Shown here: in pieces, positions 1 to 43,120 of the stretch
Layout of the letters: each line of letters opens with the position of its first letter
How positions within the stretch are numbered: position 1 is the first letter of the stretch
IMG/VR virus record: IMGVR_UViG_3300048911_000054
Reading direction: 5' to 3' (one strand)
DNA from: a virus
Length of the DNA: 43,120 nt
Translations under genes and position numbers: made by a program
The notes under the pieces: model-generated
Seen by the model: only the letters and a program-made list of their open reading frames with translations
Told to the model about the DNA's origin: nothing
The model's database searches: none

Positions 1-127
1 TCGGAAAGCTGTACGTTCAGGCGTGTCAGGTCTTTGTAGATGGCGATGATCCATCGCTTGAACCGGGCGAACGCGCCTTGAAGCTCTGGGTTTGGCGCCT
101 TGCCATCTGCCAAATACGCCTCAAAGC
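1..127. repeat. Terminal direct repeat, exact copy of 42994..43120 (circular-assembly overlap or terminal redundancy)
   Basis: tcggaaagctgtacgttcagg...gccaaatacgcctcaaagc read identically at both window ends, 127 nt. Confidence 0.95.
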
Positions 128-2870
128 CCCGGGCGAACTGTTCGTGCTGCTCAACCTCAAACGGACCTTCTGGCTTGGCCCCGGTCCATTCCCGAATCGC
201 CGCAACGTCCTGCTGCATCTGCAATGGCGCATCTGCATCGGCGGCCAAGTCGGTCACCACCTCAAGGTAAAAGTGCCCGAACTCATGGAGTAGCGTAGAA
301 AGGTCACGGCGCGCGGTCACAGTGATCTGGAACTTGCGCTGCTCTCCGGGCTTGCCGTCGTTGAACGTGATGTAACCGCGCGGTTCACGCGGAGCGCCGG
401 TCTGGTCAAGCTGAACTCCCTGAATTGACTCAGGATCTCGCAATATGGCAAGCACCTGATCATCACTCAGCTCGTTAAGGTTAACGCCAAGCTGGTCAAG
501 GTAGTCCTGAAGCTGCTGAAGGTTGGTGGCTTGGTCACGAAGCGTGGCGTTCTCCTGCTCGCTGCTGAAGGTTGGTTGATCATTCATGTCGCGCTGCACG
601 GCGTCGACGATAAGTTGCGGGCCAACGTCTTCACGGGCCACGCCGGGGAAGTAACCGTTTTCCCACGCACGCATCGCCGCGTCATCCAGGCTCAGGCCGC
701 CATCAGCCTTGACCAGACGATTACGACCAACCTTGCCGACGTTCACATCCAGGGCAGCAAGTTCGCCGCCGGCATCGTTCAAACCGCCGGCATCACGCAA
801 GTATTCGACCAGAGACTTGCCGAACAGATCTCTTGATTGCGGGATGTCACTGGTACGCAGACGACCTATAGCAATCCGCATATCGTCGACAGGGACGCGC
901 TGTATTGCATCAGGGGCCTTGTTGCGTACATCGAGAGGAAAGCGCGCCAGCAGCTCCTGAAGTGGCTTCCCGGTACGGTCAGCAAGAGTGGACATGGCGG
1001 ACAGGTGCAGAGCGGCATATTGCTCGGCGTCAGCACGACGGTATCCAGCCTGCTGAAGCTCGCCCATCATGCCGATGAAAGCGTCGTCACGGGCGTCTGG
1101 CGCTCGATCCAAGGTCTTGGCTAGCTCGTTGATCTGCTCTTCCTGGGCTGCCTGCCATTGAGCAGTTTCCTCAATGCTCATTCCTTCGGCCTGGGTTCTG
1201 ATCGAGTTGGCCAGCGCCGCGTGGTGTTCAGCGAAGGCCGTCAGGTAATCGGCCGTCTTCATGCTCACGGAGCCGCCGCTAGCCGTGGCTTCGGCAAACT
1301 GCTCGGACAGGCCAGGGATTCGTTCCAGCAATGCATCCAGAACTGGCGGCGCACCGTCCTGATTCAACTTGGCCAGGGCCTCTGCCGGGATGCTGATCAT
1401 CTCCAGCGGGGAATCCTTAAGCTGCTCCGTGGCCACTCCGTTGAATGCCTCGGCATCTCGAGAGCGCAGCTTGCTATCCAGCGAAGCTGCGACCATCTCG
1501 TCAAGCGTTGCCTTCCCCTGGCGGGCTTGCCGTGACTGGGCCAGGCCGTCCTTGATCGTGTCGATGATTCGGCCCCCACCGAATGTCGCGACCTCAACCG
1601 AAGACATGCCGGCACCAGCCACGGCTTCCATGAGCACATCGCCGCCACTGATCTTCTGATCGGCTGCGTACTGGCCAGCGGCCTCGGATGCGCCACCGAT
1701 AACGCCCTGAACGGGAAACTGGACTGCAAGGTTGGTGGCTTCTCGCTGAGTAGCGGTGAGCGCCTTCCCGCCAATTGCCTTGGGCACCAAAAGCTTTCCG
1801 GCGAGACCCATGCCAAGAACATCCACCGCCGTAGTGCCAGCGGCCTTACGTGCAGCCCTTACACGGGCATCGTCCATCAGCGCATCATCTTGCAGCGCGG
1901 TCAGTACGGCCTTGGGGTTGGTCAGATCGATCTTGGCTTCGCGCAGGATATCCAGAAGCTTGGCGTTGCCTTCGGTGCCGAACTCCACGACGCCAGCAGC
2001 CAGAGGCCCGCCAAGCGCGCCAGCTACCAGCATCTCAGCAGATCCAACGGCAGACCCAGCGGCAGCTCGCGCCGCATACCCTGGGTTCTCTGCTATGGCC
2101 TGGGCCATTGCCGACGCATCGCCGCCAAGCTCCTGATAACGCAGAGCTCCGGGCTCGACTGGCATCTTGTCCAGGTCAGCCTGCTTTGCAACCACATCGC
2201 TGATGGTCTCTGCCTGGCGACCCAGCAGCCGGTTGCGCATCTCCACCCGGCCTTCCGGCGTCTGCTGCATGTAGTCGAAGCCGAAGCCGGTGGGGTTGTC
2301 ACCGTTGGGATATGGGTTCTCGCCAACCAGCGCCGCACGGGTAATTTCCTGATCGATCGAGTCGAAGGACCGACGTAGACGCTCAAGTCTATCCGCGTAT
2401 CCGATGCCAGCCGCCTGCTTGCCCTGGGTGACTGCCTGCTCAACGGCGCCGAACAACTGCTCGCCAGGTGACTGGTTTTCGAACTTGGTGATCTGCTTCG
2501 CGTACTCGATGCGCGTCAGGTTGTCGATGTCATCCTGGGCCAGCGCAGCGGTCTGACCGTTAGAGAGCGCGGCCGCCGTCTTCGGGTAGCTGTCAAAAAC
2601 CGCCGCGTAACGGTTGTTCTTGAGCAGTTTTTCCATCTGATCCTGTTGGCGGTGAAGCACTTCAGCCGGGATGCCTGAGTACTTCGAAACGGCCGTGGCC
2701 TTGGCGAACTCATCAGGGTTCACCTCGCCGACCACCTCAAGGGTTGACATGAAGTCGTTGCGCTGGCGGTCCTTGGTTTGCTGAATGGCATCAGCCAGCA
2801 TCGAAGGCTGGCTGGGGATGATGTCTTCGCCTTGCTCAGGAAGCAGGCCGGTAGTCGGTACGGTTGCCAT
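1..2870 (-). CDS. N-terminal 956 codons of a 2,062-aa giant internal virion/ejection protein (polyvalent-type), continuing through the junction into 39675..42993
   Basis: ATG at 2870 in a TAATG overlap with the upstream stop. Hand translation (MATVPTTGLLPEQGED...) stays open to nt 1 and ends ...FARGFEAYLADGKAPNPELQGAFAR, the text that opens the tracked 39675..43106 ORF. HEFGH is encoded at nt 273-287. Gly/Ala-rich hydrophobic segments are present. Confidence 0.85.
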   Translation of the reverse strand, partial: MATVPTTGLLPEQGEDIIPSQPSMLADAIQQTKDRQRNDFMSTLEVVGEVNPDEFAKATAVSKYSGIPAEVLHRQQDQMEKLLKNNRYAAVFDSYPKTAAALSNGQTAALAQDDIDNLTRIEYAKQITKFENQSPGEQLFGAVEQAVTQGKQAAGIGYADRLERLRRSFDSIDQEITRAALVGENPYPNGDNPTGFGFDYMQQTPEGRVEMRNRLLGRQAETISDVVAKQADLDKMPVEPGALRYQELGGDASAMAQAIAENPGYAARAAAGSAVGSAEMLVAGALGGPLAAGVVEFGTEGNAKLLDILREAKIDLTNPKAVLTALQDDALMDDARVRAARKAAGTTAVDVLGMGLAGKLLVPKAIGGKALTATQREATNLAVQFPVQGVIGGASEAAGQYAADQKISGGDVLMEAVAGAGMSSVEVATFGGGRIIDTIKDGLAQSRQARQGKATLDEMVAASLDSKLRSRDAEAFNGVATEQLKDSPLEMISIPAEALAKLNQDGAPPVLDALLERIPGLSEQFAEATASGGSVSMKTADYLTAFAEHHAALANSIRTQAEGMSIEETAQWQAAQEEQINELAKTLDRAPDARDDAFIGMMGELQQAGYRRADAEQYAALHLSAMSTLADRTGKPLQELLARFPLDVRNKAPDAIQRVPVDDMRIAIGRLRTSDIPQSRDLFGKSLVEYLRDAGGLNDAGGELAALDVNVGKVGRNRLVKADGGLSLDDAAMRAWENGYFPGVAREDVGPQLIVDAVQRDMNDQPTFSSEQENATLRDQATNLQQLQDYLDQLGVNLNELSDDQVLAILRDPESIQGVQLDQTGAPREPRGYITFNDGKPGEQRKFQITVTARRDLSTLLHEFGHFYLEVVTDLAADADAPLQMQQDVAAIREWTGAKPEGPFEVEQHEQFARGFEAYLADGKAPNPELQGAFARFKRWIIAIYKDLTRLNVQLS

Positions 2871-5011
2871 TATTTGATTTTCACCCCAAGGCCAGAGATT
2901 CGGTTGACGTATGCAGCGATGATATTCGCTTCGCTGGCCTGCTGCCCGCTTGCACGCAATGCGTTGATTATCTCGCGCCTATCACTCGGCGGGATCTTGT
3001 CTATCTTCAACGTGCCTTTGTTCAGGTAGGTATCAGCCAAGTCTTCTGGCTTGGTCTCCCACAGCGCCTGCTCCTTATCGCCAAACAGCATGCCGCCACC
3101 GGTTAACTTGACCTTCAGCAGCAACTGGTTGGCCAGGTCTTCTGTCTCCTGAATGTTTGGCTCGCGGTCGAACTTGACCCGGAATGAGTCCTGACGCTCT
3201 TGCAGCGCGCTGCGGAACTGCTGCTGCTTTTCCAAGTTGCCAGGGGCCTTGGCCTTTGCGTTGTCGCCGGTGATGATTCCGGCCATGGCCATTGCCGTGT
3301 TCACCACTTTCTCTTTCCCAGCGGCTACCTGCTGCGCCGTGCCGTCACCGTTCTGAGCTTTCTGCCAAGCGCCCCGCACGGTGTTGAAGTCGGAATTGCT
3401 CAGATAGGGGCGGATGTCCTTCTCAAGGCCCATGGATGCCAGGCGGTCTGGTGGCATCTGCAAGAACTCCTGCAGCTTGCTGTAATCGGTAGTTGGCTCC
3501 GTACCCTTGCGGCGGTAGTCATCCATGCGCTGGAGCTTTACCAGCTCATCACCGGGCAAGTTGTTGATCAGCTGAGCCGGGATTGTCGAGAAGCCGCCAT
3601 CAAGCACGTACTTGCTGGCCTGGTCGTACAGCGCGTTCGTCTGAGCCTCATAGGCCTTTTTGCGATCATCCAGGTTGTCCATGACGAACTTCTTCAGCTG
3701 CGGATCTTGGATCGTGTTGGCCTGCTGAAGTCCGTCCGCGTACTTCTGCGAGGCCGGAACGGTTGGCGCTGCCTGCGACATGATGTTGGCCGTGTAGTTG
3801 CGCGTCTCCTGGAATGGAATTTTCTGGATGAAATCCTGCGCTGCGGTGCCTCCCTGGCGCGGGTCTGGCAACTGAACCTTGGACGGGTTCTTACCGGTCT
3901 TGTTGGTTCCGTTTATCCAATCCTCAACCATGCCAGGGCCGGCGTTGTAGGCGGCCACTGCCAGGGTTTGGTTGCCATCGAAATGCCCAAGCATCTTGTT
4001 GATGTATGCAGTGCCCAGCGCGGCGTTGTAGTTCGGATCAGTGGCCAGGCGCTCCTTGCTGTACGGAATTCCAAGCTCTCGGGACACTTCCTCGGCAGTC
4101 TCCGGCATGAGCTGCATCACGCCCAGGGCGCCCTTGGGAGACACGGCGTTCTGGTTGCCTGCGCTCTCAGCCTGCATGATCAGCGCCGGCAGCGCGGCGT
4201 GGCCAACTTCTCCCTTGTCCCAAATGTCGGCCGCCATCTTGGTTGCCATCTGCTGCCGTACAGAGGTTCCAAGCAGCTTTTGCGCCTTTATCTGGTCAGC
4301 CGCTGTCATCGTTGCGGCGGACTGGGCGTAGTACTGCTGGGCCTGCAGCGGATCGGAGGTGACAAGACGCTGAATCACGCTGCTCGCTACCTGGCTGTCG
4401 AACTGGCGCTGCTGCTCCAGGATGGCCTCTGGCGCCATGCCTTTACGCATGCCCATCTCGCCAAGCACATACGCACCCTTGCTCCGGTAGAAGGCCACCT
4501 GCTCAGGATCGTTGGCGTACTTGACGGCACCATCCAGCGACGTGGCGATATTGGCCTGGTCTGCTTGGTCGTAAAACGCGTTGCGCTGGGTGTGTTCGTA
4601 GCGGTTCAGTTCACCGCTCAGGCCCAGGCGCTGGTTCTGGACAATCCGCTGAAACTGCTCTTTCTGCCGGGCGTTGGTCAGCCCCATCCCGATCTGTTCC
4701 GCCTGCTTGTCGAACTGCGGCAGAGTCTGATTGGTGATGTCCAGTGCATCCTTACCCTGGCGCGTGTATGCCCCCCCGTTCTGGTTGAACATCAGATCAA
4801 GTCGGTTCTGCGAAAGCTTGGCCTCAGCATCCATCAGAGCGGCGTTGTCGGCTCGTTGCATCTCGCGCTGGGCCAGGTCCGCACCAACCCCAACAACAGT
4901 CTGCTGGAGTTGGTAGCCGGACATGTCAGGGCCGACAGATTGAACCTGAGGGGCCGGCAGAGCCCGGTTCGCAACCCCAGGAAGTTCTTGTGTTGGTACG
5001 GTGATAGCCAT
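2870..5011 (-). CDS. Internal virion protein with soluble lytic transglycosylase (SLT) domain, 713 aa (T7 gp15 position)
   Basis: SLT motifs AESAGNQNAVSPKGALGVMQLMPETA ... AYNAGPGMVEDWI. SD AAGGAGAG precedes the ATG. Confidence 0.85.
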   Translation of the reverse strand: MAITVPTQELPGVANRALPAPQVQSVGPDMSGYQLQQTVVGVGADLAQREMQRADNAALMDAEAKLSQNRLDLMFNQNGGAYTRQGKDALDITNQTLPQFDKQAEQIGMGLTNARQKEQFQRIVQNQRLGLSGELNRYEHTQRNAFYDQADQANIATSLDGAVKYANDPEQVAFYRSKGAYVLGEMGMRKGMAPEAILEQQRQFDSQVASSVIQRLVTSDPLQAQQYYAQSAATMTAADQIKAQKLLGTSVRQQMATKMAADIWDKGEVGHAALPALIMQAESAGNQNAVSPKGALGVMQLMPETAEEVSRELGIPYSKERLATDPNYNAALGTAYINKMLGHFDGNQTLAVAAYNAGPGMVEDWINGTNKTGKNPSKVQLPDPRQGGTAAQDFIQKIPFQETRNYTANIMSQAAPTVPASQKYADGLQQANTIQDPQLKKFVMDNLDDRKKAYEAQTNALYDQASKYVLDGGFSTIPAQLINNLPGDELVKLQRMDDYRRKGTEPTTDYSKLQEFLQMPPDRLASMGLEKDIRPYLSNSDFNTVRGAWQKAQNGDGTAQQVAAGKEKVVNTAMAMAGIITGDNAKAKAPGNLEKQQQFRSALQERQDSFRVKFDREPNIQETEDLANQLLLKVKLTGGGMLFGDKEQALWETKPEDLADTYLNKGTLKIDKIPPSDRREIINALRASGQQASEANIIAAYVNRISGLGVKIK

Positions 5012-5021
5012 TGGTCTCTCC

Positions 5022-5576
5022 TTATGCGTACGCGCTGGTCAAGAAGCTGCCGGACGATGCGCCGAATCCTGAACTGGCGCCGCCGCCACCTCCGAACATG
5101 GATGCGCCGCCGCCACCGAAGAACGAGCCGGCGCCCTTAACAACGCCACCCAAAAGACTGTTCTGCTTTGCATTCTGTCCGGCCAGCACAGTATCTGTGG
5201 CATTCCTGAACCCTTGCATGGCCTGGACTTTAAGGCCGTATGCCTCGCGTGCGGCGTTGTTCTGGATCGTGAGCGCGTCAAGTTCGCCGAGCTGGGCCGT
5301 ATCCTGTTGCAGAACAGAGTTGGTGCCCTCGTCTACCAGGCCACCGTTGGCAGCCATGGCGGTACGCTGGGTACCAATCATCTGACCAGTGCGCAGGCGC
5401 TGAAGGTCGGCGTCATACCGGCCCCGCGATAAAGCATCGTCCGCTGCGTTGTTGGCGTACATCGCGTTTGTACGCATGGTTCTCGCCTGGCTTTGAGCCT
5501 GGGCGTCCTGCGCATTACCTTGTGAAATACCGCCGACCACTGCCAGCGCTACCGGAATCAATGCCATCCAGCACAT
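5022..5576 (-). CDS. Internal virion protein, N-terminal TM helix and Gly-rich tail, 184 aa (T7 gp14 position)
   Basis: MCWMALIPVALAVVGG TM segment, Gln/Ala-rich middle, GGGGASMFGGGGGASSGFG C-terminus. SD GAGAGGTG. Confidence 0.65.
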   Translation of the reverse strand: MCWMALIPVALAVVGGISQGNAQDAQAQSQARTMRTNAMYANNAADDALSRGRYDADLQRLRTGQMIGTQRTAMAANGGLVDEGTNSVLQQDTAQLGELDALTIQNNAAREAYGLKVQAMQGFRNATDTVLAGQNAKQNSLLGGVVKGAGSFFGGGGASMFGGGGGASSGFGASSGSFLTSAYA

Positions 5577-5578
5577 GG

Positions 5579-6052
5579 TTACACCTCTCGTTTAAGTTGG
5601 AATTGAAAGAATGGTAGGCCTTTGGGGCCGTATGGCACAGCCTCGCCGAACTTGAACCCCAGCCATTTCAGCCAGCGAATGGCCTGAGTGTTGCGGGCGT
5701 CGACGTAGTTGATCAGAGTGTCATGCCTGGTCAGCATCTCAAGCACCTCTTCACGGCATACTCGCAGGAACGGCTTGGCGCGCCTGTCCACGTGGATCGT
5801 GCTGATCAGCCAAGGCACGCCGATGGACTGCTGCACGTCATGAACACTGTCGCCGAACACCGCAACAACCTTTCCGCCGACAACGATCTTGCTGGCCTTG
5901 CAGCTGCCGCCGAAGCAAAGGCGCAGGCCATGCTCCATCTCGATGCCAAGCGCTTCTGTGATCTCTTCAAGATCAGCCTGACGCACGATGGCCGCAATCT
6001 CTGCGGCCTCGTCGATACTTACTGGTAACACCTGCGCTTTCTGCTTCATCAC
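5579..6052 (-). CDS. Small virion-module protein with GNAT-like C-terminal signature, 157 aa (T7 gp13 position)
   Basis: ...NYVDARNTQAIRWLKWLGFKF resembles the GNAT beta5-alpha4 region. ATGA overlap with the upstream gene. Confidence 0.5.
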   Translation of the reverse strand: MMKQKAQVLPVSIDEAAEIAAIVRQADLEEITEALGIEMEHGLRLCFGGSCKASKIVVGGKVVAVFGDSVHDVQQSIGVPWLISTIHVDRRAKPFLRVCREEVLEMLTRHDTLINYVDARNTQAIRWLKWLGFKFGEAVPYGPKGLPFFQFQLKREV

Positions 6053-9131: not shown

Positions 9132-9593
9132 TTACGCGTCCGGCAGGTTGTCGTCCTGCTCTTGAACCTGCGCGGCTTGCTGCGGGCTCAGCGTGGACTT
9201 GGCAGCATCCTGGTTAAGGCGATCAGCTTCGGCCTGAGCCTTAGCCTTGGACTCGCCATTCTTGCCCTTCACGGCTTCGAACAGCTCACCAACGCGGTTG
9301 CCATCAGCATCGATCACTTCGAAGTTGCCAACCGGTACATGGCGCACGGTGAACTGAACGGGCACTGGCGTGAAAGGGGCAGAGGAAGGAACCGAGCCAA
9401 CTTCAGGAACCGGAGCAACCGCTGGCGCCGGAACCTTGCCGGCCTTCTGGTCCTTGGTCAGCTTTGGCGTGCCGTCGGCATTGGCCAGAACCATCCAATT
9501 GCCCGGTTCTTCATCGTCAGGGATTTCAAACCGCTCGCCCGCTTCCCGCAGATGACCGTAGAACCCCAATGCTTTCGCGATAACGAGCGGCAT
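9132..9593 (-). CDS. Hypothetical head-module protein with Pro/Ala-rich linker, 153 aa
   Basis: ORF with a coding-like codon pattern. It sits between the decoration gene and the terminator. Confidence 0.6.
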   Translation of the reverse strand: MPLVIAKALGFYGHLREAGERFEIPDDEEPGNWMVLANADGTPKLTKDQKAGKVPAPAVAPVPEVGSVPSSAPFTPVPVQFTVRHVPVGNFEVIDADGNRVGELFEAVKGKNGESKAKAQAEADRLNQDAAKSTLSPQQAAQVQEQDDNLPDA

Positions 9594-9602
9594 ACGGCCT
9601 CC

Positions 9603-10034
9603 TTACAGGTAGTCAGGGTAGTTGAAGTTGAAGTTCGCACCGTCAACGATGTGAGCCGAAACGACGCCCGCGGTCATAGGGCCGGTGGCGACCGTGTAGT
9701 TCACCCGGGTGTATCGGCGCGTTGGGATCGGGAAGCCAACCCAGAAGCCTTTTCCAGCAGTCAGCTGAGCCAGAGAGAACGGGCCCAGGCTAGCCACGTC
9801 GGCGAAGGTCACGTTATCTGCAGAGTCTTGCAGGGTCGCTTGCAGGGTCGCTGCGCCGGCGGCGGTGAAGGTCTGACTGACGTTGACGAACAGATAAAGC
9901 GGAGTGCCAGCGCCCAGGTCACGACCAATGGCCGGGTTCCTGGTTGCGCCAGCGTCCACAACGTTGGTGCTGACAGCGGTGGCGGTGACTGTCTGCTTGT
10001 CCGAGTACTGCAATTGCTTGTCGAGAATAGTCAT
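9603..10034 (-). CDS. Capsid decoration/cement protein (BPP-1 Bbp16-like by recollection), 143 aa
   Basis: Beta-rich 143-aa ORF directly after the major capsid gene. The family call is from memory. Confidence 0.55.
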   Translation of the reverse strand: MTILDKQLQYSDKQTVTATAVSTNVVDAGATRNPAIGRDLGAGTPLYLFVNVSQTFTAAGAATLQATLQDSADNVTFADVASLGPFSLAQLTAGKGFWVGFPIPTRRYTRVNYTVATGPMTAGVVSAHIVDGANFNFNYPDYL

Positions 10035-11078: not shown

Positions 11079-11825
11079 TTATTGCTTCGGTGTAAACACG
11101 TCGCCAAACATAACGTCGGCCGCACGTTTGTCCTCTGTTACGGATGCATCAGAGCCTGGGATTACCAGCTTGTCTTCGGAGATGGCCAGGCCTATCTTGT
11201 GCATGCCGCGAATCAGGGCTGGGTTGTTGCCGATGCCTGAGTCGTTGAGCAGTTGACGGAAGTCGTCCCCGAAAAAAGTGGAAATGGCCTTAACGGCCGT
11301 GGAAACAGTTGAGTCGAACTTGGCACCGCCAAGCTCGGGGTCGGTCTTGATCTCGTTGACCCATTTGTCGCTCTGGGCCTTCAGAGCCTGCTCAAGGAAC
11401 TCTGCGCGCCCTGTCTCGCCTGCGGCAGCTGTCTTGGCCTGCAGGTCAACCAGCTTTTGGGCCTGGGCCTGGGTCAATCCAAGCTCCTTGGCCAGCCCGT
11501 TGAACTCAGTGAGCATGGCCTCGTCGACCTGCACGCCTTCTGGAAGCTTGTAGGCCTCGTAGGTCTCAGGCACTTCATTGGCCTTGTCCTCGGCAGTCTC
11601 CCGCGCAAGCTTGGCTTCTGGAGTCTCTGCGTTGTCCTTGGCTGCCTGCTCGGCTTCCAGCTCGCCTACGGTCTTGCTGGAGTTGATGTCGGCCAGCGGG
11701 TCAGTATTGGCCGGCGCAGCATCAGCAGCTGGTGCAGCTTCAGAACCACCGCCGCCCAACAAGCTGTCGCCGCCTTCTTCCGCCAACAAAAAATGGCCAA
11801 GGGCCCTGTGAATAAACATGTTCAT
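11079..11825 (-). CDS. Scaffolding protein, 248 aa
   Basis: Acidic, Ala/Glu/Lys-rich and helical, between portal-associated and capsid genes. Start set at ATG 11825 (the track uses TTG 11831). Confidence 0.7.
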   Translation of the reverse strand: MNMFIHRALGHFLLAEEGGDSLLGGGGSEAAPAADAAPANTDPLADINSSKTVGELEAEQAAKDNAETPEAKLARETAEDKANEVPETYEAYKLPEGVQVDEAMLTEFNGLAKELGLTQAQAQKLVDLQAKTAAAGETGRAEFLEQALKAQSDKWVNEIKTDPELGGAKFDSTVSTAVKAISTFFGDDFRQLLNDSGIGNNPALIRGMHKIGLAISEDKLVIPGSDASVTEDKRAADVMFGDVFTPKQ

Positions 11826-11827
11826 GG

Positions 11828-12139
11828 TCAATTACCCTTCTCGGTTTTCGTCGTGTTCTCGTTGATCATCACCTGATACTTCTCGGGACAATCGGTTTGG
11901 ATCTTGCTGATCAGCATCAGACCCACGTTGCGGCGCCCTTCCATGTATGCCATCTGTGCGTGACTTTCAATCGGCATTGCCTTGAACGCCCCGAACTCTT
12001 GCAACATGAACCATACGAAGCGCCTGCCGCCGTCTGTGGCCATTATGCCCCGAAAGTCATCCGACAGTTGGTGTTCGCGCATTGCGGCCAACCTGCGAGC
12101 TTCCAGGGCCTCCTTGGCCGTCATGCCTTCTGTATTCAT
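11828..12139 (-). CDS. Small conserved head-module protein (Bbp19-like by recollection), 103 aa
   Basis: ATGA-type overlap with the portal stop. Motif FVWFMLQEFG...MAYMEGRRNVGL. Confidence 0.5.
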   Translation of the reverse strand: MNTEGMTAKEALEARRLAAMREHQLSDDFRGIMATDGGRRFVWFMLQEFGAFKAMPIESHAQMAYMEGRRNVGLMLISKIQTDCPEKYQVMINENTTKTEKGN

Positions 12140-18021: not shown

Positions 18022-18096
18022 TGGCAAACCCCCGTGGATTCGAACCACGTCCGCACGGCTTTGGAGGCCGGCATGCAGCCATTACACCTGGAGCCT
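18022..18096 (-). tRNA. tRNA-Trp(CCA)
   Basis: Reverse complement AGGCTCCAGGTGTAATGGCTGCATGCCGGCCTCCAAAGCCGTGCGGACGTGGTTCGAATCCACGGGGGTTTGCCA. Perfect T-arm CGTGG-TTCGAAT-CCACG, anticodon loop CU-CCA-AA, acceptor stem with three G.U pairs, encoded CCA. Confidence 0.7.
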
Positions 18097-36759: not shown

Positions 36760-39663
36760 TTATGTAAGGATTACACCGCTGATCAGCAAAGTGTTACCTG
36801 CGGCGGCGGGGAACGTGCCGGTGTTAGAATAAATACGCAACTGCGTTCCTGTCGCATAACCGGTCAACCCGGCTCCAGTAGTCTGATTGTTGCCTCCAAC
36901 TGAGCAGTTAACTGCCGCGGTAAATGGAAGGCTCAGCGTCAAATAACCAGACCAATCACCTACCGTGTTAACGGTAACGCTTGCATTGAATGCATACCTA
37001 TTTTTGTCACGGGTCCAATTAAGGGAGACTGCCGACGAAGTACCGGTTCCAGTACCAGGGCCACCAGAACCTCCTACAGATGGAGTCGAAGATCCGATAT
37101 CAACGCCCGCACCGTCATACAAGGCAGAGCCGTTACCATTCGGGCTATTAAGTCTTTGAACACCAGTAAACCCGGCTGGGTAATAGCAATTTCTCAGCGT
37201 GATTGATGATTCAACCGAGGTAGCTGGAACGTTCACATCACCACTGGCGTTGTTATTGATTGCGGTGCCGGACGCCATGAACTTGCTGCCGCTGCCTATG
37301 GTCAGTCCGAAACCAGCAGAGGTACCTGAAACCCAGCATCCATCTGCATGGATCAATCCCTGGTCGCCAATTTCTATACCTGCTCTCACGTTTGCGCCAA
37401 TAGCCATTCGGTCAATACGAGCGCCGCCACCATCAGAATAGACACCAGACAAGGAAGAAAGAAGGCTTACTGAATCGGTCAGGTGCACCTTGCCGCTATC
37501 CAGAATGCGGTAGTTCATGCCGCCGCAGGCAACTGCCATCGGCGCCTCACCATAAACTACAGACCCTGTATCGGTGCGCAGTCCGTCGTTACCGGAACCA
37601 GCCAAACGAATCTCCGTGACCACAGCCGTGCCACCGGCATTTACCAACAAGGCTATGCCACTACCGCCTGTGATTTGGGCTCGGCGAAGATTCGCGATAC
37701 CGCCTTCAAGAACCCAAACACTGTTTTCAAGGTTATTGGTAGATGCGAATTTCCGTGCGTTCAAAAGGCAGCCATGACCGATCATCGCCGCGCGAAGAAA
37801 CCGGGTTGCCCCGACGTTTTGGCCAAACAGAACCGTGCCGCGCAAGCCGTTCTGAGTAACATCTCCAAACGATGTTCCTCCGCTGGACGTCTCGCTAGGA
37901 ATCCGATCCTGAAGCAGAAATCCGATCCCCGTTCCGGATCCAGGCCCTACAACAACCAAATTGTTGACCTCGCGTAGAGATCCGTTCTGATCGAAAACAA
38001 ACCCGTCGTCGCCAACAGCGGTGCCATTCTGCTTCAGCACAGTTTTGATGATTCTGAATTCATCAACCGACACGCCATTGATAGGAGGTTTTACGGTGCT
38101 GCGGTTTCGCACGGCGATGGTACCAGCGCCTACGGCGGTAATCTCATGCACGCCTTCATGCAGGCAGGCGGCCGACTGCAGGATGCTGTAAGAGGTGCCA
38201 GCGGCAAGTGTCACTGGTGCAGCCAAGGTCAAAGAGGTGCCGCTAACCACGGTCAATATCTTTGTCATCACACCATCAGCGAGAAGCACGTCGCCTGGGT
38301 TTGCCTCGGTAGTGAATGCGGTACCAACGCCAGTGACAGTTGCATTTGGAGCGCCCGCGGTGCCAATCGTGCCGGCGTTCGGGCGAGTGATGTAGAACGA
38401 TCGAGATCCGGAGTTGCCGCCATTAGTCCATGCGCCAACGATGGAAGCGCTGGTACCGCCGATAACGTTCAGAACCCGAGTCTGACCTTTGTCCGTGATT
38501 AGGTCGCCACTGTGCATATAGTCCGAAAGTGAACCACTGACAGCACTGAAGGCTACGCTGCCGCCGCCGCCTGCATAGGTCAAGCTTCCAACACTTTGCA
38601 ACAGGGGCGTGTACAGCTCTCCCTTAAGTGGGTAGCTGCGCAGGATGTAGCTCGCCGCATTATCACCGTTCAGGATTGGGAGTGGCCCAACATCGAATAG
38701 CTTGGCGTAGTCACCAACCACCGCACCCGAAGTGCTTGCCACGTTGTATGTGATAGTCCAGTCGCCGGCAACGCCAGTGATTGACGCAACAGACGAGGCC
38801 GTTGTTTCCAGAGGGGTAGGGCCAAGCAACTTGATCAGGGAATTTCTAACCCCAACACGACAAATAGGACCAGCGGCAGTGGCATGAACGCTGGCGCCAA
38901 GATTGATATTCAGCGGCCCTTCAACGCTCACCCGATTGAGGAACGGCAATACGTATGGAGAATCCGCCGAAGAAAGTGACACGTCAGTAACGGTCGCTGG
39001 CACATGAACCATCGCGCCGGAAGCCAAGGCTGCGCGGAGCGTTGCGTAGTCAGACAGACTCACGGTTTCGAGCAGCTTTGCCGAAACGGTAGTAAAAATA
39101 TTCCCAGGCGTCACATGAATTACGTTAACAGAGTTATTGATGGGCCCCTGCCCGGTCGACAGAATTGAGGCCACATAATCAGTTGCCCATTTTCGAGTTG
39201 CGGCATCTTGAGGAAGTAAAGGGTCTCCAACATTGATGATCCTGCTTCCTTTGGCGTCCCATGTAGCCCCGCCAGGAGAAAGCTGTAGTGAATTATTAGC
39301 AACTCCAGAAACCTGCTGAATCAGCATGACGATCCTATCAAAGGCATCTTCATGAATTGCTGGGAAAAATGCACCCTGGTTTCTGATTGATGTCGGCTGC
39401 ACGAGAGGAAGAATACGACTGACCAAGACGTTCTTAACACCGGCAGGCGGAGATACTGAAAAAATTACTTGTCCTCCACCGGGCGCCATAGCCCCTGATA
39501 ACGTGTAGTCAACATTTAAAGTCTGGCCGACTATGCTTCCATCGCTGCCAATCAGGTAAACAAAAATATTTGAGTTATCAAAGAACCTGAAATTGAACGG
39601 GAAATTTTTGTTAGAGCCATCGCCATCGAAATACTGACGATCGAGAGTTGTGGTTACGGTCAT
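36760..39663 (-). CDS. Tailspike / tail fibre with conserved podovirus N-terminal adaptor domain and beta-helix-like body, 967 aa
   Basis: N-terminus DRQYFDGDGSNKNFPFNFRFFDNSNIFVYLIGSDG...VDYTL. Long Gly/Asn/Ser/Thr/Val-rich repetitive body. T7 gp17 position. Confidence 0.75.
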   Translation of the reverse strand: MTVTTTLDRQYFDGDGSNKNFPFNFRFFDNSNIFVYLIGSDGSIVGQTLNVDYTLSGAMAPGGGQVIFSVSPPAGVKNVLVSRILPLVQPTSIRNQGAFFPAIHEDAFDRIVMLIQQVSGVANNSLQLSPGGATWDAKGSRIINVGDPLLPQDAATRKWATDYVASILSTGQGPINNSVNVIHVTPGNIFTTVSAKLLETVSLSDYATLRAALASGAMVHVPATVTDVSLSSADSPYVLPFLNRVSVEGPLNINLGASVHATAAGPICRVGVRNSLIKLLGPTPLETTASSVASITGVAGDWTITYNVASTSGAVVGDYAKLFDVGPLPILNGDNAASYILRSYPLKGELYTPLLQSVGSLTYAGGGGSVAFSAVSGSLSDYMHSGDLITDKGQTRVLNVIGGTSASIVGAWTNGGNSGSRSFYITRPNAGTIGTAGAPNATVTGVGTAFTTEANPGDVLLADGVMTKILTVVSGTSLTLAAPVTLAAGTSYSILQSAACLHEGVHEITAVGAGTIAVRNRSTVKPPINGVSVDEFRIIKTVLKQNGTAVGDDGFVFDQNGSLREVNNLVVVGPGSGTGIGFLLQDRIPSETSSGGTSFGDVTQNGLRGTVLFGQNVGATRFLRAAMIGHGCLLNARKFASTNNLENSVWVLEGGIANLRRAQITGGSGIALLVNAGGTAVVTEIRLAGSGNDGLRTDTGSVVYGEAPMAVACGGMNYRILDSGKVHLTDSVSLLSSLSGVYSDGGGARIDRMAIGANVRAGIEIGDQGLIHADGCWVSGTSAGFGLTIGSGSKFMASGTAINNNASGDVNVPATSVESSITLRNCYYPAGFTGVQRLNSPNGNGSALYDGAGVDIGSSTPSVGGSGGPGTGTGTSSAVSLNWTRDKNRYAFNASVTVNTVGDWSGYLTLSLPFTAAVNCSVGGNNQTTGAGLTGYATGTQLRIYSNTGTFPAAAGNTLLISGVILT

Positions 39664-39674
39664 GCGTATTGCTC

Positions 39675-42600
39675 CTACTTGGGTTCTTTTGGCGGCCCAA
39701 ACATCAGGCCTCGGATGAATTCCAACATATTGTCGTCTTGACGCTCACCACGCTCAACGCTGAATAGGTACTTGATTGTCCGCTTAGGCTGGGCGGTAGG
39801 CAGGCCAAACCCCATGCCGACCACATCCATTGTGGACATCGTTATTTTCTCAGCATCTACATCATCCTGACCTATAGCCGCAGCCAAGCGCGTTGCCGAT
39901 TTAAATACATCGCCGATAGGGGTTGCTCCTGAATAGGCCCACCCGCTTTCCAGGCTGCTCGCCACATCACGAAGCAACGGAACTGCCATCAAAGGATAGG
40001 TTGCCACCTTCAGCGCCGCCCACTTGGCATATGAATCGTCATCCTTTGGGCCTTGACCGGTCATCAAAGGTGCAAGAACAGCCGGCATTGCGATCAGGAA
40101 AATGGTCCTTTCAAATGCGCTCAGATAGTCCTTCACGCCTTGGGCTGTCTTCATGCTATGTACCAGATCGGCCTGGCGGTTATAGAGCAGGTTGAAGTAG
40201 CTGTAGACGATTGTGAGAGCCTTCATAAGTCCATCCTTGCGCTGCACGGCTGCAAGGTCTTTCGGGCCGCCAGACATCTGAGATAAGCGCACGGCGCGGT
40301 CTCCCATTGCCACCGAGGTATCCAACGTTTCGCCGTCGGCCATTCCCTTGTGATACGCGGCAAGCCATGTAGGATAATCAACCATCGACTGGATGATGCT
40401 GATGTGCTTAAAAGCCAGACGTTGAATTACGGCCTTCGGACCGGTACGACCGCTCACGCGCTTCAGAACCTCGCGCATATTGTTGTCCAGGTTGGCGTCA
40501 CGGTTACGCATCTCCCCAGACAGTGACTTCACGAAAGCGATGGTTTTGAATGGCTGGCGTACAAACTCCAGCATGCCCTGCGGCAGATACTTGCGGGCTC
40601 CGAGCTGAGCAAGATGCTCCCAGCTTTGCGAGAAGCCAAGAATCTGCTGAATGCCAGTGGTGGCGCTGAAGCCCATCCAGCCCACGGAAAGGTTGGCGCG
40701 CAAAGTGCTGGATAGGTTGGTCCAAGCATCGATACCTTTCCGGCTGTCCATCACCATGTCATTGGCAACACCCTGTAGCCATGGGTTGAACTGGTTGGCA
40801 ATGTTAACGCCCAGCGTCTCGTTCAGCGCCTGCTTGACCTCCTTGTTGCTGATGATCTTGGCCGCGTCGATGATCGCCTTACGGTGCGTCAAGTCGTGGA
40901 TGACCTGGCCCAAGTGGCTGGCCACAATACTGGTGTCCAACATGATCGGCGCCGCGAAGGAATCAACCCGTGCCTTGGTGTGTCCCTTGGGCGTGGTGGC
41001 CTTGGCATATCCCTGCTCAAACAGGCCGGTGTTGTCGGTAAGGTTGTTGGCAACCTGGGCGTATTCAGGTGAGCTTGTGTCGTACACCAGAGGCCAGTAG
41101 CCGCCGCTGTACTCCCCATATTGAGTGCTGACAGGGGTCGCGACGATCTTGTCTGGCGCAACGCCGTGCAGGTCTTTCTCCAGTTGCTCGATTTGCGGCC
41201 AAAGGCGCTCAACCAGATCCCACTGGCTCTGCGCGAACTCCCAATCATCCTTGTTCATGTTGCGCAGGATCGCGCCCAGCTGGTTTTCGTCCCAGCCGTA
41301 ACCCTTCAGCAGCTTCTCCCGGTTTCCGGCGTTACCGGTGTTCAGGGCGGCGCTGATAATTGCGTTGCGGGTCAGAGACTGGCCGATCTCCGGGATATTG
41401 ATCTGCTCGCGCATTGCCCGCTGGCCGCGCGCATCGATGTACTTGTCGACGTTGGCCATCAGCTGCGTGGTGAACTCTCGGTTCAGATCATCCTTGGCTG
41501 CCTGGGCCTCCACAAACGGTTGCCAGAAAGTGGTGTGCCATGGCCCCTCAATGTCGCCATCGTCCAGCCACTCAACGATTTGTTCCATTTTGAGTAGCGC
41601 TGCAGACATGCTGCTGGCCCAGTCGCCCATGCGTTCCAGTGCTGTCAGCGTGCCTTTATCGATTGGTGGCGCCTTGCGCTTGCCCAGGTTTGCATAAGCC
41701 GCCTTCACCAGCAGATCCTTGGCCTCAGCGAAGTCCTTCAGGCGTTTGTTTGCCAGTAGCTTATTCTTCAGGCCGGCCAGGTGATTCACGTTCTGTACGA
41801 AGTCATTCAACTCGGATAACTGGGCCAGAGACAGATCCTTGTAGTTGACCTTCTGCGAGGTGTTCAGGATGAACTCAGGAACATCCGGCTCATTGCCCTG
41901 CGCCAGCTGGTCGGCGTACCACTGAGCAAACGATACGCGCTTATCCAGATCGCGCAGGCTGACATTGCGGAACTCGTACTGCTCCATGACCGCATCGATC
42001 TGATCCAGGTAGGAGTGCCCGGCCTTGCCCAGCTTCTCCCGGCGCGTCGACTTGTTGAAGTCAGCCATGCGATTTACGATCGAGTCGATTTCGTCGCGGG
42101 CCTTCTTGGCCTCACGCCACAGGTGATAGTTCAGCAACTGTTGCTGCTTTGCCTCATAGGCCGCGGCCAAGTCACCCTTGGCGGCCGCTTCGAAAGCCCG
42201 GCGTCCAGCCTTGCCTTCTGCGCGCTGATACTCGAAAGGCTGGATGTCGCGCACCTTTCGGTTCTGCATGATGCGTTCTGCGGCGGCCTTAAGGACTTGC
42301 TGGCTAGTGATGTTCTTGCGGTTACCCTGCTTGCCCAGTGCATTCAGCTCCTTGAGCAGAACTGCGCCGCGCTTCTCGTTGTGCACAGCGGCCATGGCTT
42401 TCTCAGTCGAGGCGCCATCAGCGCGCGCGCCGTGGCGCTCCATCATGCGGGCCTGGGTCTCTGCAAGGATGGCTTCGCCGCGCGGAGGTGCACCAAGGAT
42501 GGCCTTGATCATCTCGTCGCCGGATTTGAAGCCCAGGATCTGAGCGGAGATGTCCATCGGGATACCGTCTTTGCCATGCATGAACGCCAGCTTGCGCAAT

Positions 42601-43120
42601 ACGGCGGTACCGTACAGATCCTTGATCTCGGACCCCTGCAGCTTGATGTTCTGCTGGGTGCCGTCTGGCATGATCCCTTTGCGCAATGCGCGGATAGCCT
42701 GGTACTCCGGCAGCGTATCCAGCTCTTCTGAGACTTCGGCGGCAATGCGCGCAGACTCTTCGCCCCACCACTTGCTGCGGCGCTGCTCTTCTTCGCGGAT
42801 CACTTGCTGCTCAACCGTGGTCGCGGCTTCGGCGTGGGCCAGGTCAACCTGGTCGCGGTAGGCTGCGAACTCGGTTTCCGTCATGCCAGCCTTGGCCGCG
42901 CTTTCGAACATGGGCATGGCCTGGGTCACGTCCTGGGCTGCGCGGATCTGGTCATCAGTTGCAACGATTCGATCCATCACGCCACGTATCTCATCGGAAA
43001 GCTGTACGTTCAGGCGTGTCAGGTCTTTGTAGATGGCGATGATCCATCGCTTGAACCGGGCGAACGCGCCTTGAAGCTCTGGGTTTGGCGCCTTGCCATC
43101 TGCCAAATACGCCTCAAAGC
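39675..43120 (-). CDS. C-terminal ~1,106 codons of the same giant virion protein (42994..43120 duplicates 1..127)
   Basis: The tracked 1143-aa ORF begins at an internal TTG. It is in frame with 1..2870 across the junction (6189 nt = 2063 codons). It occupies the T7 gp16 position, just upstream of the tailspike. Confidence 0.85.
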   Translation of the reverse strand, partial: FEAYLADGKAPNPELQGAFARFKRWIIAIYKDLTRLNVQLSDEIRGVMDRIVATDDQIRAAQDVTQAMPMFESAAKAGMTETEFAAYRDQVDLAHAEAATTVEQQVIREEEQRRSKWWGEESARIAAEVSEELDTLPEYQAIRALRKGIMPDGTQQNIKLQGSEIKDLYGTAVLRKLAFMHGKDGIPMDISAQILGFKSGDEMIKAILGAPPRGEAILAETQARMMERHGARADGASTEKAMAAVHNEKRGAVLLKELNALGKQGNRKNITSQQVLKAAAERIMQNRKVRDIQPFEYQRAEGKAGRRAFEAAAKGDLAAAYEAKQQQLLNYHLWREAKKARDEIDSIVNRMADFNKSTRREKLGKAGHSYLDQIDAVMEQYEFRNVSLRDLDKRVSFAQWYADQLAQGNEPDVPEFILNTSQKVNYKDLSLAQLSELNDFVQNVNHLAGLKNKLLANKRLKDFAEAKDLLVKAAYANLGKRKAPPIDKGTLTALERMGDWASSMSAALLKMEQIVEWLDDGDIEGPWHTTFWQPFVEAQAAKDDLNREFTTQLMANVDKYIDARGQRAMREQINIPEIGQSLTRNAIISAALNTGNAGNREKLLKGYGWDENQLGAILRNMNKDDWEFAQSQWDLVERLWPQIEQLEKDLHGVAPDKIVATPVSTQYGEYSGGYWPLVYDTSSPEYAQVANNLTDNTGLFEQGYAKATTPKGHTKARVDSFAAPIMLDTSIVASHLGQVIHDLTHRKAIIDAAKIISNKEVKQALNETLGVNIANQFNPWLQGVANDMVMDSRKGIDAWTNLSSTLRANLSVGWMGFSATTGIQQILGFSQSWEHLAQLGARKYLPQGMLEFVRQPFKTIAFVKSLSGEMRNRDANLDNNMREVLKRVSGRTGPKAVIQRLAFKHISIIQSMVDYPTWLAAYHKGMADGETLDTSVAMGDRAVRLSQMSGGPKDLAAVQRKDGLMKALTIVYSYFNLLYNRQADLVHSMKTAQGVKDYLSAFERTIFLIAMPAVLAPLMTGQGPKDDDSYAKWAALKVATYPLMAVPLLRDVASSLESGWAYSGATPIGDVFKSATRLAAAIGQDDVDAEKITMSTMDVVGMGFGLPTAQPKRTIKYLFSVERGERQDDNMLEFIRGLMFGPPKEPK
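42994..43120. repeat. Second copy of the 127-nt terminal repeat
   Basis: Identical to 1..127. Confidence 0.95.

Follow-up and report, generated by a model that had tools for sequence, protein, structure and literature searches.

A conserved HExxH module at the boundary of cargo and C-terminal unit in a giant podovirus protein: a possible role in self-processing

What does a single HExxH motif do in the middle of a giant protein of a Pseudomonas podovirus that is presumably ejected during infection? The question is raised by the IMG/VR virus record IMGVR_UViG_3300048911_000054, a stretch of 43,120 nucleotides (nt; the whole stretch is called the window below), which encodes on its minus strand a protein of 2062 amino acids (aa) with HEFGH at residue 862. 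Giant podovirus ejection proteins are poorly understood, and the activation of polyvalent proteins after injection is a question that was raised in 2017. A first-pass annotation, made from the sequence alone, described the motif as part of a zincin-type metallopeptidase module and proposed that it cleaves a host envelope or defence component at the moment of infection. By sequence comparison, the module sits at the boundary of a variable N-terminal cargo and a constant C-terminal unit of about 1100–1200 aa. The reading preferred here, which is tentative and falls somewhat short of an even chance, is that the module holds a gluzincin-type metal site that would cleave at L-x-Q linkers, in cis or within an oligomer, and free the cargo.

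The sequence details of the first-pass annotation are all found in the minus-strand translation from the ATG at 2870–2868. Residues 857–875 read LSTLLHEFGHFYLEVVTDL, with GYITFNDGKPGEQRKFQITVTARRD upstream and EQHEQFARGFEAYLADGKAP downstream of HEFGH, and residue 862 of 2062 is fairly described as the middle of the protein. HEFGH is the sole HExxH of the 2062-aa protein.

273..287, minus strand: HEFGH, residues 862–866, encoded by CATGAGTTCGGGCAC; H862, E863, and H866 are invariant

From the amino acid composition, 0.018 HExxH motifs are expected per protein. An exhaustive HMMER search with residues 797–986 returned 9423 representative proteins at E <= 0.001 (6809 at E <= 1e-10), and the best 150 of these relatives are mostly 2000–4000 aa long. 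In the alignment of 151 modules that was used to assess conservation, H862, E863, H866, E910, E917, G923, P926, W940, Y945, L951, and R965 are invariant. With distant phage versions added, H862, E863, H866, E910, A913, E917, G923, P926, and Y945 are still invariant. HExxH is present at the homologous place in five such distant homologs, namely Bbp10 of Bordetella phage BPP-1, proteins of two uncultured podoviruses, and those of Leptolyngbya phage Lbo-JY46 and vir555. In all five it is paired with [H]E-x-[FW]-A-x-G-F-E-x-Y, with a spacer of about 30 to 105 aa. Such pairing at variable spacing is as expected for two putative halves of one site. A chance occurrence of HExxH in a long protein, which about 1.7% of 20000 composition-matched shuffles would produce, is excluded because of this conservation (151/151 aligned homologs as well as the distant phage versions) and is given a negligible probability. 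The module is also found in phages AF and UFJF_PfDIW6, in the Xanthomonas CP2 group, and in Caulobacter, Vibrio, Acinetobacter, and cyanobacterial phages in addition to BPP-1.

Two other delimitations of the module were considered and rejected. The E-x-F-A-R-G-F-E half is not an independent domain, as what look like half-copies are either split or truncated modules or lie downstream of a diverged HExxH. LPD1 is not the C-terminal half of the module, as the short-linker versions (the second copy of relative P0090, and Lbo-JY46) have HExxH and no LPD1 match. Among the variant arrangements, relative P0018 has two full modules in tandem, about 200 aa apart, and in relative P0049 a full module is accompanied by two truncated first halves and by a second half that lies about 400 aa from a first half. 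The 125-kb genome of cyanophage Lbo-JY46 (L005) carries the same module together with the C-terminal unit. So does the vir555 contig (L006), for which the record gives Methanomicrobiales, an archaeal group, as the host. This host assignment looks doubtful given the surrounding T7-like internal virion proteins.

The distance from HExxH to the C-terminus is near constant in the family (median 1230 aa, standard deviation 82), whereas the N-terminal part can be as short as 711 aa or as long as 2825 aa. PHROG 9880 (phrog_9880; function not annotated) covers residues 829–2060 of the protein in the window, and because this match starts at residue 829, the conserved unit begins at the module. Near the N-terminus lies one recognizable domain.

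2499..2735, minus strand: LPD22 domain (PF18834), residues 46–124, Pfam E 1.5e-19

Among 15 larger relatives, LPD22 is present in 14 and ART-PolyVal in 12; PBECR5, LPD1, LPD5, Zeta_toxin, GNAT, and L5_gp82 also occur, upstream of the module. In the closest relatives (P0009, P0010, P0012, and P0013), an insert of 200–900 aa separates the equivalent of residue ~830 from the module. The insert of P0010 consists of a PBECR5 nuclease and an ART-PolyVal ADP-ribosyltransferase and ends 13 residues before the module. The site just upstream of the module thus looks like a hot spot for cargo insertion. Because this 2062-aa product of a late structural operon carries LPD22 and has relatives with unrelated effector domains, it is classed here as a polyvalent protein, following Iyer et al. 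2017 (PMC5512222). Hydrophobic segments at residues 274–299 and 348–366 (about nt 1773–2051) lie within a Gly/Ala-rich stretch (34% G+A, residues 260–470), and one more is found near the C-terminus (residues 1913–1939, in the second part of the coding sequence). These are possible membrane-inserting parts of the ejection protein.

The predicted fold of the module has the following parts.

21..395, minus strand: folded core, residues 826–950, predicted as a beta-hairpin and four helices (AlphaFold2, 125-aa model; predicted local distance difference test [pLDDT] 94.4, predicted template modelling score [pTM] 0.86)
318..377, minus strand: predicted beta-hairpin, strands 832–837 and 846–851, preceded by the conserved R831-G832
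240..302, minus strand: HExxH-bearing helix, residues 857–877, predicted in two AlphaFold models
105..155, minus strand: predicted helix 906–922, VEQHEQFARGFEAYLAD, with the invariant E910 (nt 143–141), A913, and E917 (nt 122–120)

In both confident models (194 and 125 aa), the HExxH helix directly follows the beta-hairpin, which agrees with the beta-rich stretch that had been noted upstream of the motif. The longer model adds a short bridge at 820–821, and no N-terminal backing helix is seen in either model. The interval first delimited (128–420) covers residues 817–915 only, with the invariant E917 just outside. E910 is a candidate third metal ligand. The arrangement E910-x-x-A913 on a later helix resembles NEGFA, the third-ligand motif of M1 gluzincins. 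Overall, a gluzincin-like metal site is likely, and the module is a putative member of the zincin fold class.

Database searches gave sub-threshold similarities to several metallopeptidases. In Pfam, the module matched Peptidase_M78 at E 0.2, and across 45 members of the family the best values were 0.0027 for DUF4344 and 0.0041 for M78, all of them below the cut-off. In the PDB profile search, FtsH (E 0.78) and Spartan (1.1–1.8) were found below the threshold, and a PDB sequence search gave nothing significant. A Foldseek search against BFVD returned homologs only, with IrrE, SprT, and M34 models at E 1.2–1.8. The NCBIfam scan of the module found no zincin family, and scans of the whole protein and the module against Pfam, PHROGs, and NCBIfam gave LPD22 and the unannotated phrog_9880 only. 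Pfam MPTase-PolyVal (PF18818, ArdC-type) had no match at E <= 1–5 in the whole protein, the module, or 45 module homologs. The earlier assignment to zincin modules of polyvalent proteins is therefore upheld in its polyvalent part (LPD22, and ART-PolyVal, PBECR5, and Zeta_toxin in relatives) and not in the zincin fold or in PF18818.

Two linkers N-terminal to the motif are candidate substrates.

387..410, minus strand: site B linker, L821-D-Q-T-G-A-P-R828 (LDQTGAPR), candidate processing site with putative cleavage
1344..1367, minus strand: site A linker, L502-N-Q-D-G-A-P-P509 (LNQDGAPP), candidate processing site with putative cleavage

The segment around site B has low pLDDT; the site precedes the first strand by 10 residues and HExxH by about 40, and its Q823 is kept in 137/151 sequences. 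Site A aligns with a family-wide [LY][FW]Q[SDT] site. Both aligned L-x-Q sites are conserved family-wide, and the L-[ND]-Q-x-G-A-P linkers of this protein match the [LY]xQ sites. In 135 full-length relatives, [LFYM][FY]Q occurs 307 times as compared with 117 +/- 10 expected (about 2.6-fold), with 274 positions upstream and 38 downstream of HExxH. In relatives, these motifs sit just outside the ART-PolyVal and L5_gp82 domains. Neither linker motifs nor T7-type internal proteins were discussed by Iyer et al. 2017 (PMC5512222). A search of the structural gene module found no other supported protease. The 250-aa product of a gene between the portal and capsid genes (11079–11831, minus strand) matches phrog_458, which is labelled 'protease'. 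This label is without support in Pfam or PDB searches, and the product is probably a scaffold protein; a prohead protease acting on the L-x-Q sites is accordingly unsupported.

Under the preferred reading, residues ~826–950 would form a small gluzincin-type metal-binding domain, in which zinc would be held by the two HExxH histidines and probably E910, with E863 as the catalytic base. The module would cut its own polypeptide at the L-x-Q linkers (Q504 and Q823), in cis or within an oligomer. The cut would part the N-terminal cargo from the C-terminal ejection unit, and may take place in the capsid or after ejection. The cargo delivered by this phage would comprise LPD22, the hydrophobic Gly/Ala-rich segment, and the middle domain; in relatives, it would comprise ADP-ribosyltransferase, nuclease, or kinase toxin domains. 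Self-processing is favoured because the junction position is fixed, the module is universal while the cargo is variable, and linker motifs are present. A more specific version, in which the module is a self-processing peptidase recognizing L-x-Q linkers (with the cut between Q and a following S, G, D, or T) that bracket every cargo domain, is rather doubtful.

Parts of this system have been noticed before. The first-pass annotation knew of no characterization of such a module in T7-order ejection proteins; this does not stand, since a segment of the Bbp10 ortholog had already served as a seed of a zincin-like family, and MPTase domains adjoining IVP-D-type C-terminal regions have been described for the virion RNA polymerase (vRNAP) of phage N4 (PMC5512222, PMC4819975). 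In Lenart 2013 (PMC3650047), residues 700–1000 of Bbp10 are one of the seeds of CLCA_X, a family of mostly phage or prophage origin that consists of long proteins without known domains. CLCA_X was tied to CLCA_N, which that study handles as the metalloprotease domain of CLCA proteins, by profile-profile comparison only (FFAS and HHalign). The domain was not placed in ejection proteins there, the downstream E-x-x-A-x-G-F-E helix was not noted, and the extra ligand proposed was an Asp at position +4 (PMC3650047). The module in the window matches Bbp10 residues 784–939 (BPP-1 nt 9529–9996) with a tblastn E of 1e-30, and Bbp10 likewise has HESGH at 797 with HHEQFARGFEAYL downstream. E870, located four positions after the second His, corresponds to the last position of the published HExxHxxxD consensus. 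The motif here reads HEFGHFYLE, and at +4 close homologs have E in 93% of cases, while ctype202 has D and vir555 has G. Human CLCA1 cleaves itself.

According to Iyer et al. 2017 (PMC5512222), a zincin-like MPTase is the commonest domain of polyvalent proteins, and autoprocessing was proposed for these MPTases. One of them lies before the encapsidation domain in N4 vRNAP, at aa 2130–2448 of gp50. The C-terminal encapsidation unit of N4, about 1050–1100 aa long, was equated with IVP-D by Hardies 2016 (PMC4819975). The giant protein in the window shares the layout of N4 gp50, i.e., cargo, HExxH module, and long C-terminal unit. As a homology search with the N4 MPTase gave one match, ten Schitoviridae sequences (L007–L016) were taken from phage records for comparison. 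The N4 family has an invariant NEFMAW about 80 aa after HExxH, which resembles HEQFARGF here ([NH]-E-x-x-A-x-G); hhalign did not pair the two. The module differs from the polyvalent MPTases of Iyer et al. in that PF18818 is unmatched and the strand-2 histidine of one phage clade is absent. Another giant podovirus protein with an LPD domain and a metallopeptidase-type domain is gp47 of phi24B, a polyvalent virion protein of 2811 aa in which LPD5, LPD1, and LPD38 are combined with a metallopeptidase domain, MuF-C (bioRxiv 10.64898/2026.04.10.717836). It was seen in virions by proteomics and is a proposed ejection protein. However, its domain families and structural group (F116/GP4-like) are different, and its peptidase is proposed to act on peptidoglycan. 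Taken together, computational studies of 2013 and 2017 had already described this type of module; the tentatively new elements here are its fixed position at the boundary and the L-x-Q linkers.

Several observations weigh against the preferred reading. Only two strands are predicted, in contrast to the three-stranded sheet and backing helix of canonical zincins. In Foldseek searches of the PDB, the lowest E value was 0.34 for the 194-aa model and 0.66 for the 125-aa model, and none of the first 50 matches of either model was a zincin. The structural expectation of the first-pass annotation was thus borne out for the helical HExxH and not for the overall fold. The profile search that it suggested came back empty as well, with no significant Pfam, NCBIfam, or PDB profile match to any zincin. 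For the linkers, much of the [LFYM][FY]Q enrichment reflects repeated counting of homologous sites across related proteins. The middle residues of the two L-x-Q sites show no co-variation when tested family-wide, and the octapeptides of sites A and B are no more alike than chance (28 pairs with at least 5/8 identity vs. 27 in shuffles). The hhalign comparison with the N4 MPTase family was weak (P 0.005–0.006, probability 6–7%), with 90 collinear columns and HExxH aligned. Furthermore, a comparable MPTase is present in N4 vRNAP, and this protein is packaged without being processed (PMC5512222).

Because of this N4 precedent, a non-catalytic metal site becomes more credible. The module may be a metal-binding or structural element, or an HExxH enzyme of some other chemistry, that serves folding, oligomerization, or encapsidation. 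The unrecovered zincin fold and the lack of a significant family match fit this explanation, as do the requirement of the MPTase-containing region of N4 gp50 for encapsidation (PMC5512222) and a weak, sub-threshold match of the module to the aKG-HExxH hydroxylase model (E 0.042). However, E863 is invariant along with both histidines and the two downstream glutamates, whereas at purely structural zinc sites the base can usually be lost, and the explanation is considered improbable. The host-directed protease originally proposed, i.e., an effector that is delivered with the ejection protein and, as infection begins, cleaves a protein of the host envelope or of host defence, is also unlikely. The conservation of the motif and the site would fit it equally well, the gene lies among those of internal virion proteins, relatives carry clear effector domains, and such a role is one of those considered for MPTases by Iyer et al. 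2017 (PMC5512222). Nevertheless, no target is known and no defence-related family was matched. Moreover, effector domains vary and swap while the module is universal and fixed beside the constant unit; therefore, a housekeeping role fits better than a host-specific weapon, and the architecture appears to favour cis-processing over a protease directed at the host.

A third explanation is that the module cuts the peptide stems of peptidoglycan and complements the SLT domain of the neighboring gene product during envelope penetration. That adjacent gene does carry SLT, and a comparable role was proposed for the metallopeptidase domain of phi24B gp47 (bioRxiv 10.64898/2026.04.10.717836). Ejection proteins often host wall hydrolases, such as the M23 in gp28 of cyanophage A4 (PMC12002296). 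Yet the peptidases with which phages are known to attack peptidoglycan belong to the M23, M15, or CHAP types and not to the HExxH gluzincins, and the module has no similarity to these types in Pfam or Foldseek searches. Placement at the boundary between cargo and constant unit would also be left unexplained, which makes this explanation quite remote.

The window is a complete phage genome, in which nt 1–127 are identical to nt 42994–43120. This end duplication may stem from the overlap of a circular assembly or may be a short terminal repeat. Owing to the identity of the two ends, the giant open reading frame (ORF) leaves the sequence at nt 1 and resumes at 42993. The ATG of the giant gene overlaps the stop codon of the upstream gene by 1 nt.

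join(2870..1, 42993..39675), minus strand: full giant coding sequence, 2062 aa, spanning the junction of the genome ends
1..2870, minus strand: its first part, residues 1–956 and part of codon 957, with ATG at 2870–2868
39675..42993, minus strand: its second part, to residue 2062 and the stop codon
42994..43120, no strand: exact copy of nt 1–127
2870..5011, minus strand: upstream neighbor in gp15/IVP-C position, a 713-aa protein that carries an SLT lytic transglycosylase domain
5022..5576, minus strand: T7 gp14-like internal virion protein
5579..6052, minus strand: T7 gp13-like internal virion protein
36760..39663, minus strand: downstream neighbor, 967 aa, tail fibre or spike whose N-terminal domain is that of T7 tail fibres

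The structural genes are arranged in the order of portal, 250-aa scaffold-like protein, GP7-type capsid, tail tube A, and tail tube B, followed by the gp13-like, gp14-like, 713-aa SLT, giant, and tail fibre proteins. As in T7, where gp16 (IVP-D) follows gp13, gp14, and gp15 and precedes the tail fibre, the giant protein occupies the gp16 gene position. In contrast to this protein, T7 gp16 lacks an HExxH module and itself carries a transglycosylase N-terminally. Unlike T7, this phage lacks a T7-type RNA polymerase. Because the ORF list of the genome contains none of RNA-polymerase size, the phage does not belong to Autographiviridae, the T7 family in the taxonomic sense. The T7-type ejection context described earlier is thus retained as regards the gp16 gene position and not as family membership, and the resemblance to T7 is limited to the order of the structural genes (epsilon15/BPP-1 subgroup). 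Over its entire length, the C-terminal stretch of 1076 aa can be aligned with Bbp10, which is listed as the IVP-D of the epsilon15 subgroup (PMC4819975, Table 2). Comparisons of the C-terminal unit with T7 gp16 gave no jackhmmer match and a weak hhalign result (P 0.025, probability 1.9%), those with the C-terminus of N4 gp50 were not significant by jackhmmer or hhalign, and the PDB search gave no T7 gp16 match for the giant protein. The IVP-D assignment rests on the published result for Bbp10, which was obtained by comparing hidden Markov models (PMC4819975), and synteny together with the literature suggests that the giant protein is ejected.

The nearest relative is Pseudomonas phage HU1 from raw milk, with 84% nucleotide identity over the giant-gene region. 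Its ortholog is also 2062 aa long, is 95.5% identical, has HEFGH at 862 as well, and is annotated as hypothetical only. A single tRNA-Trp gene (CCA anticodon) is located at 18022–18096 on the minus strand of the window, whereas HU1 is annotated with tRNA-Asn and tRNA-Thr genes.

The family is very large, with 9423 representative clusters, and has a candidate protease at a fixed place and simple candidate cleavage motifs. Because of this fixed candidate, the simple motifs, and the cultivable relative HU1, the idea of autoprocessing is directly testable. If the version with linkers around every cargo domain is true, one injected polypeptide would be cut into free effectors and a channel-forming C-terminal unit. 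The giant protein would then represent a phage-borne 'polyprotein' delivery system that is used by thousands of podovirus lineages.

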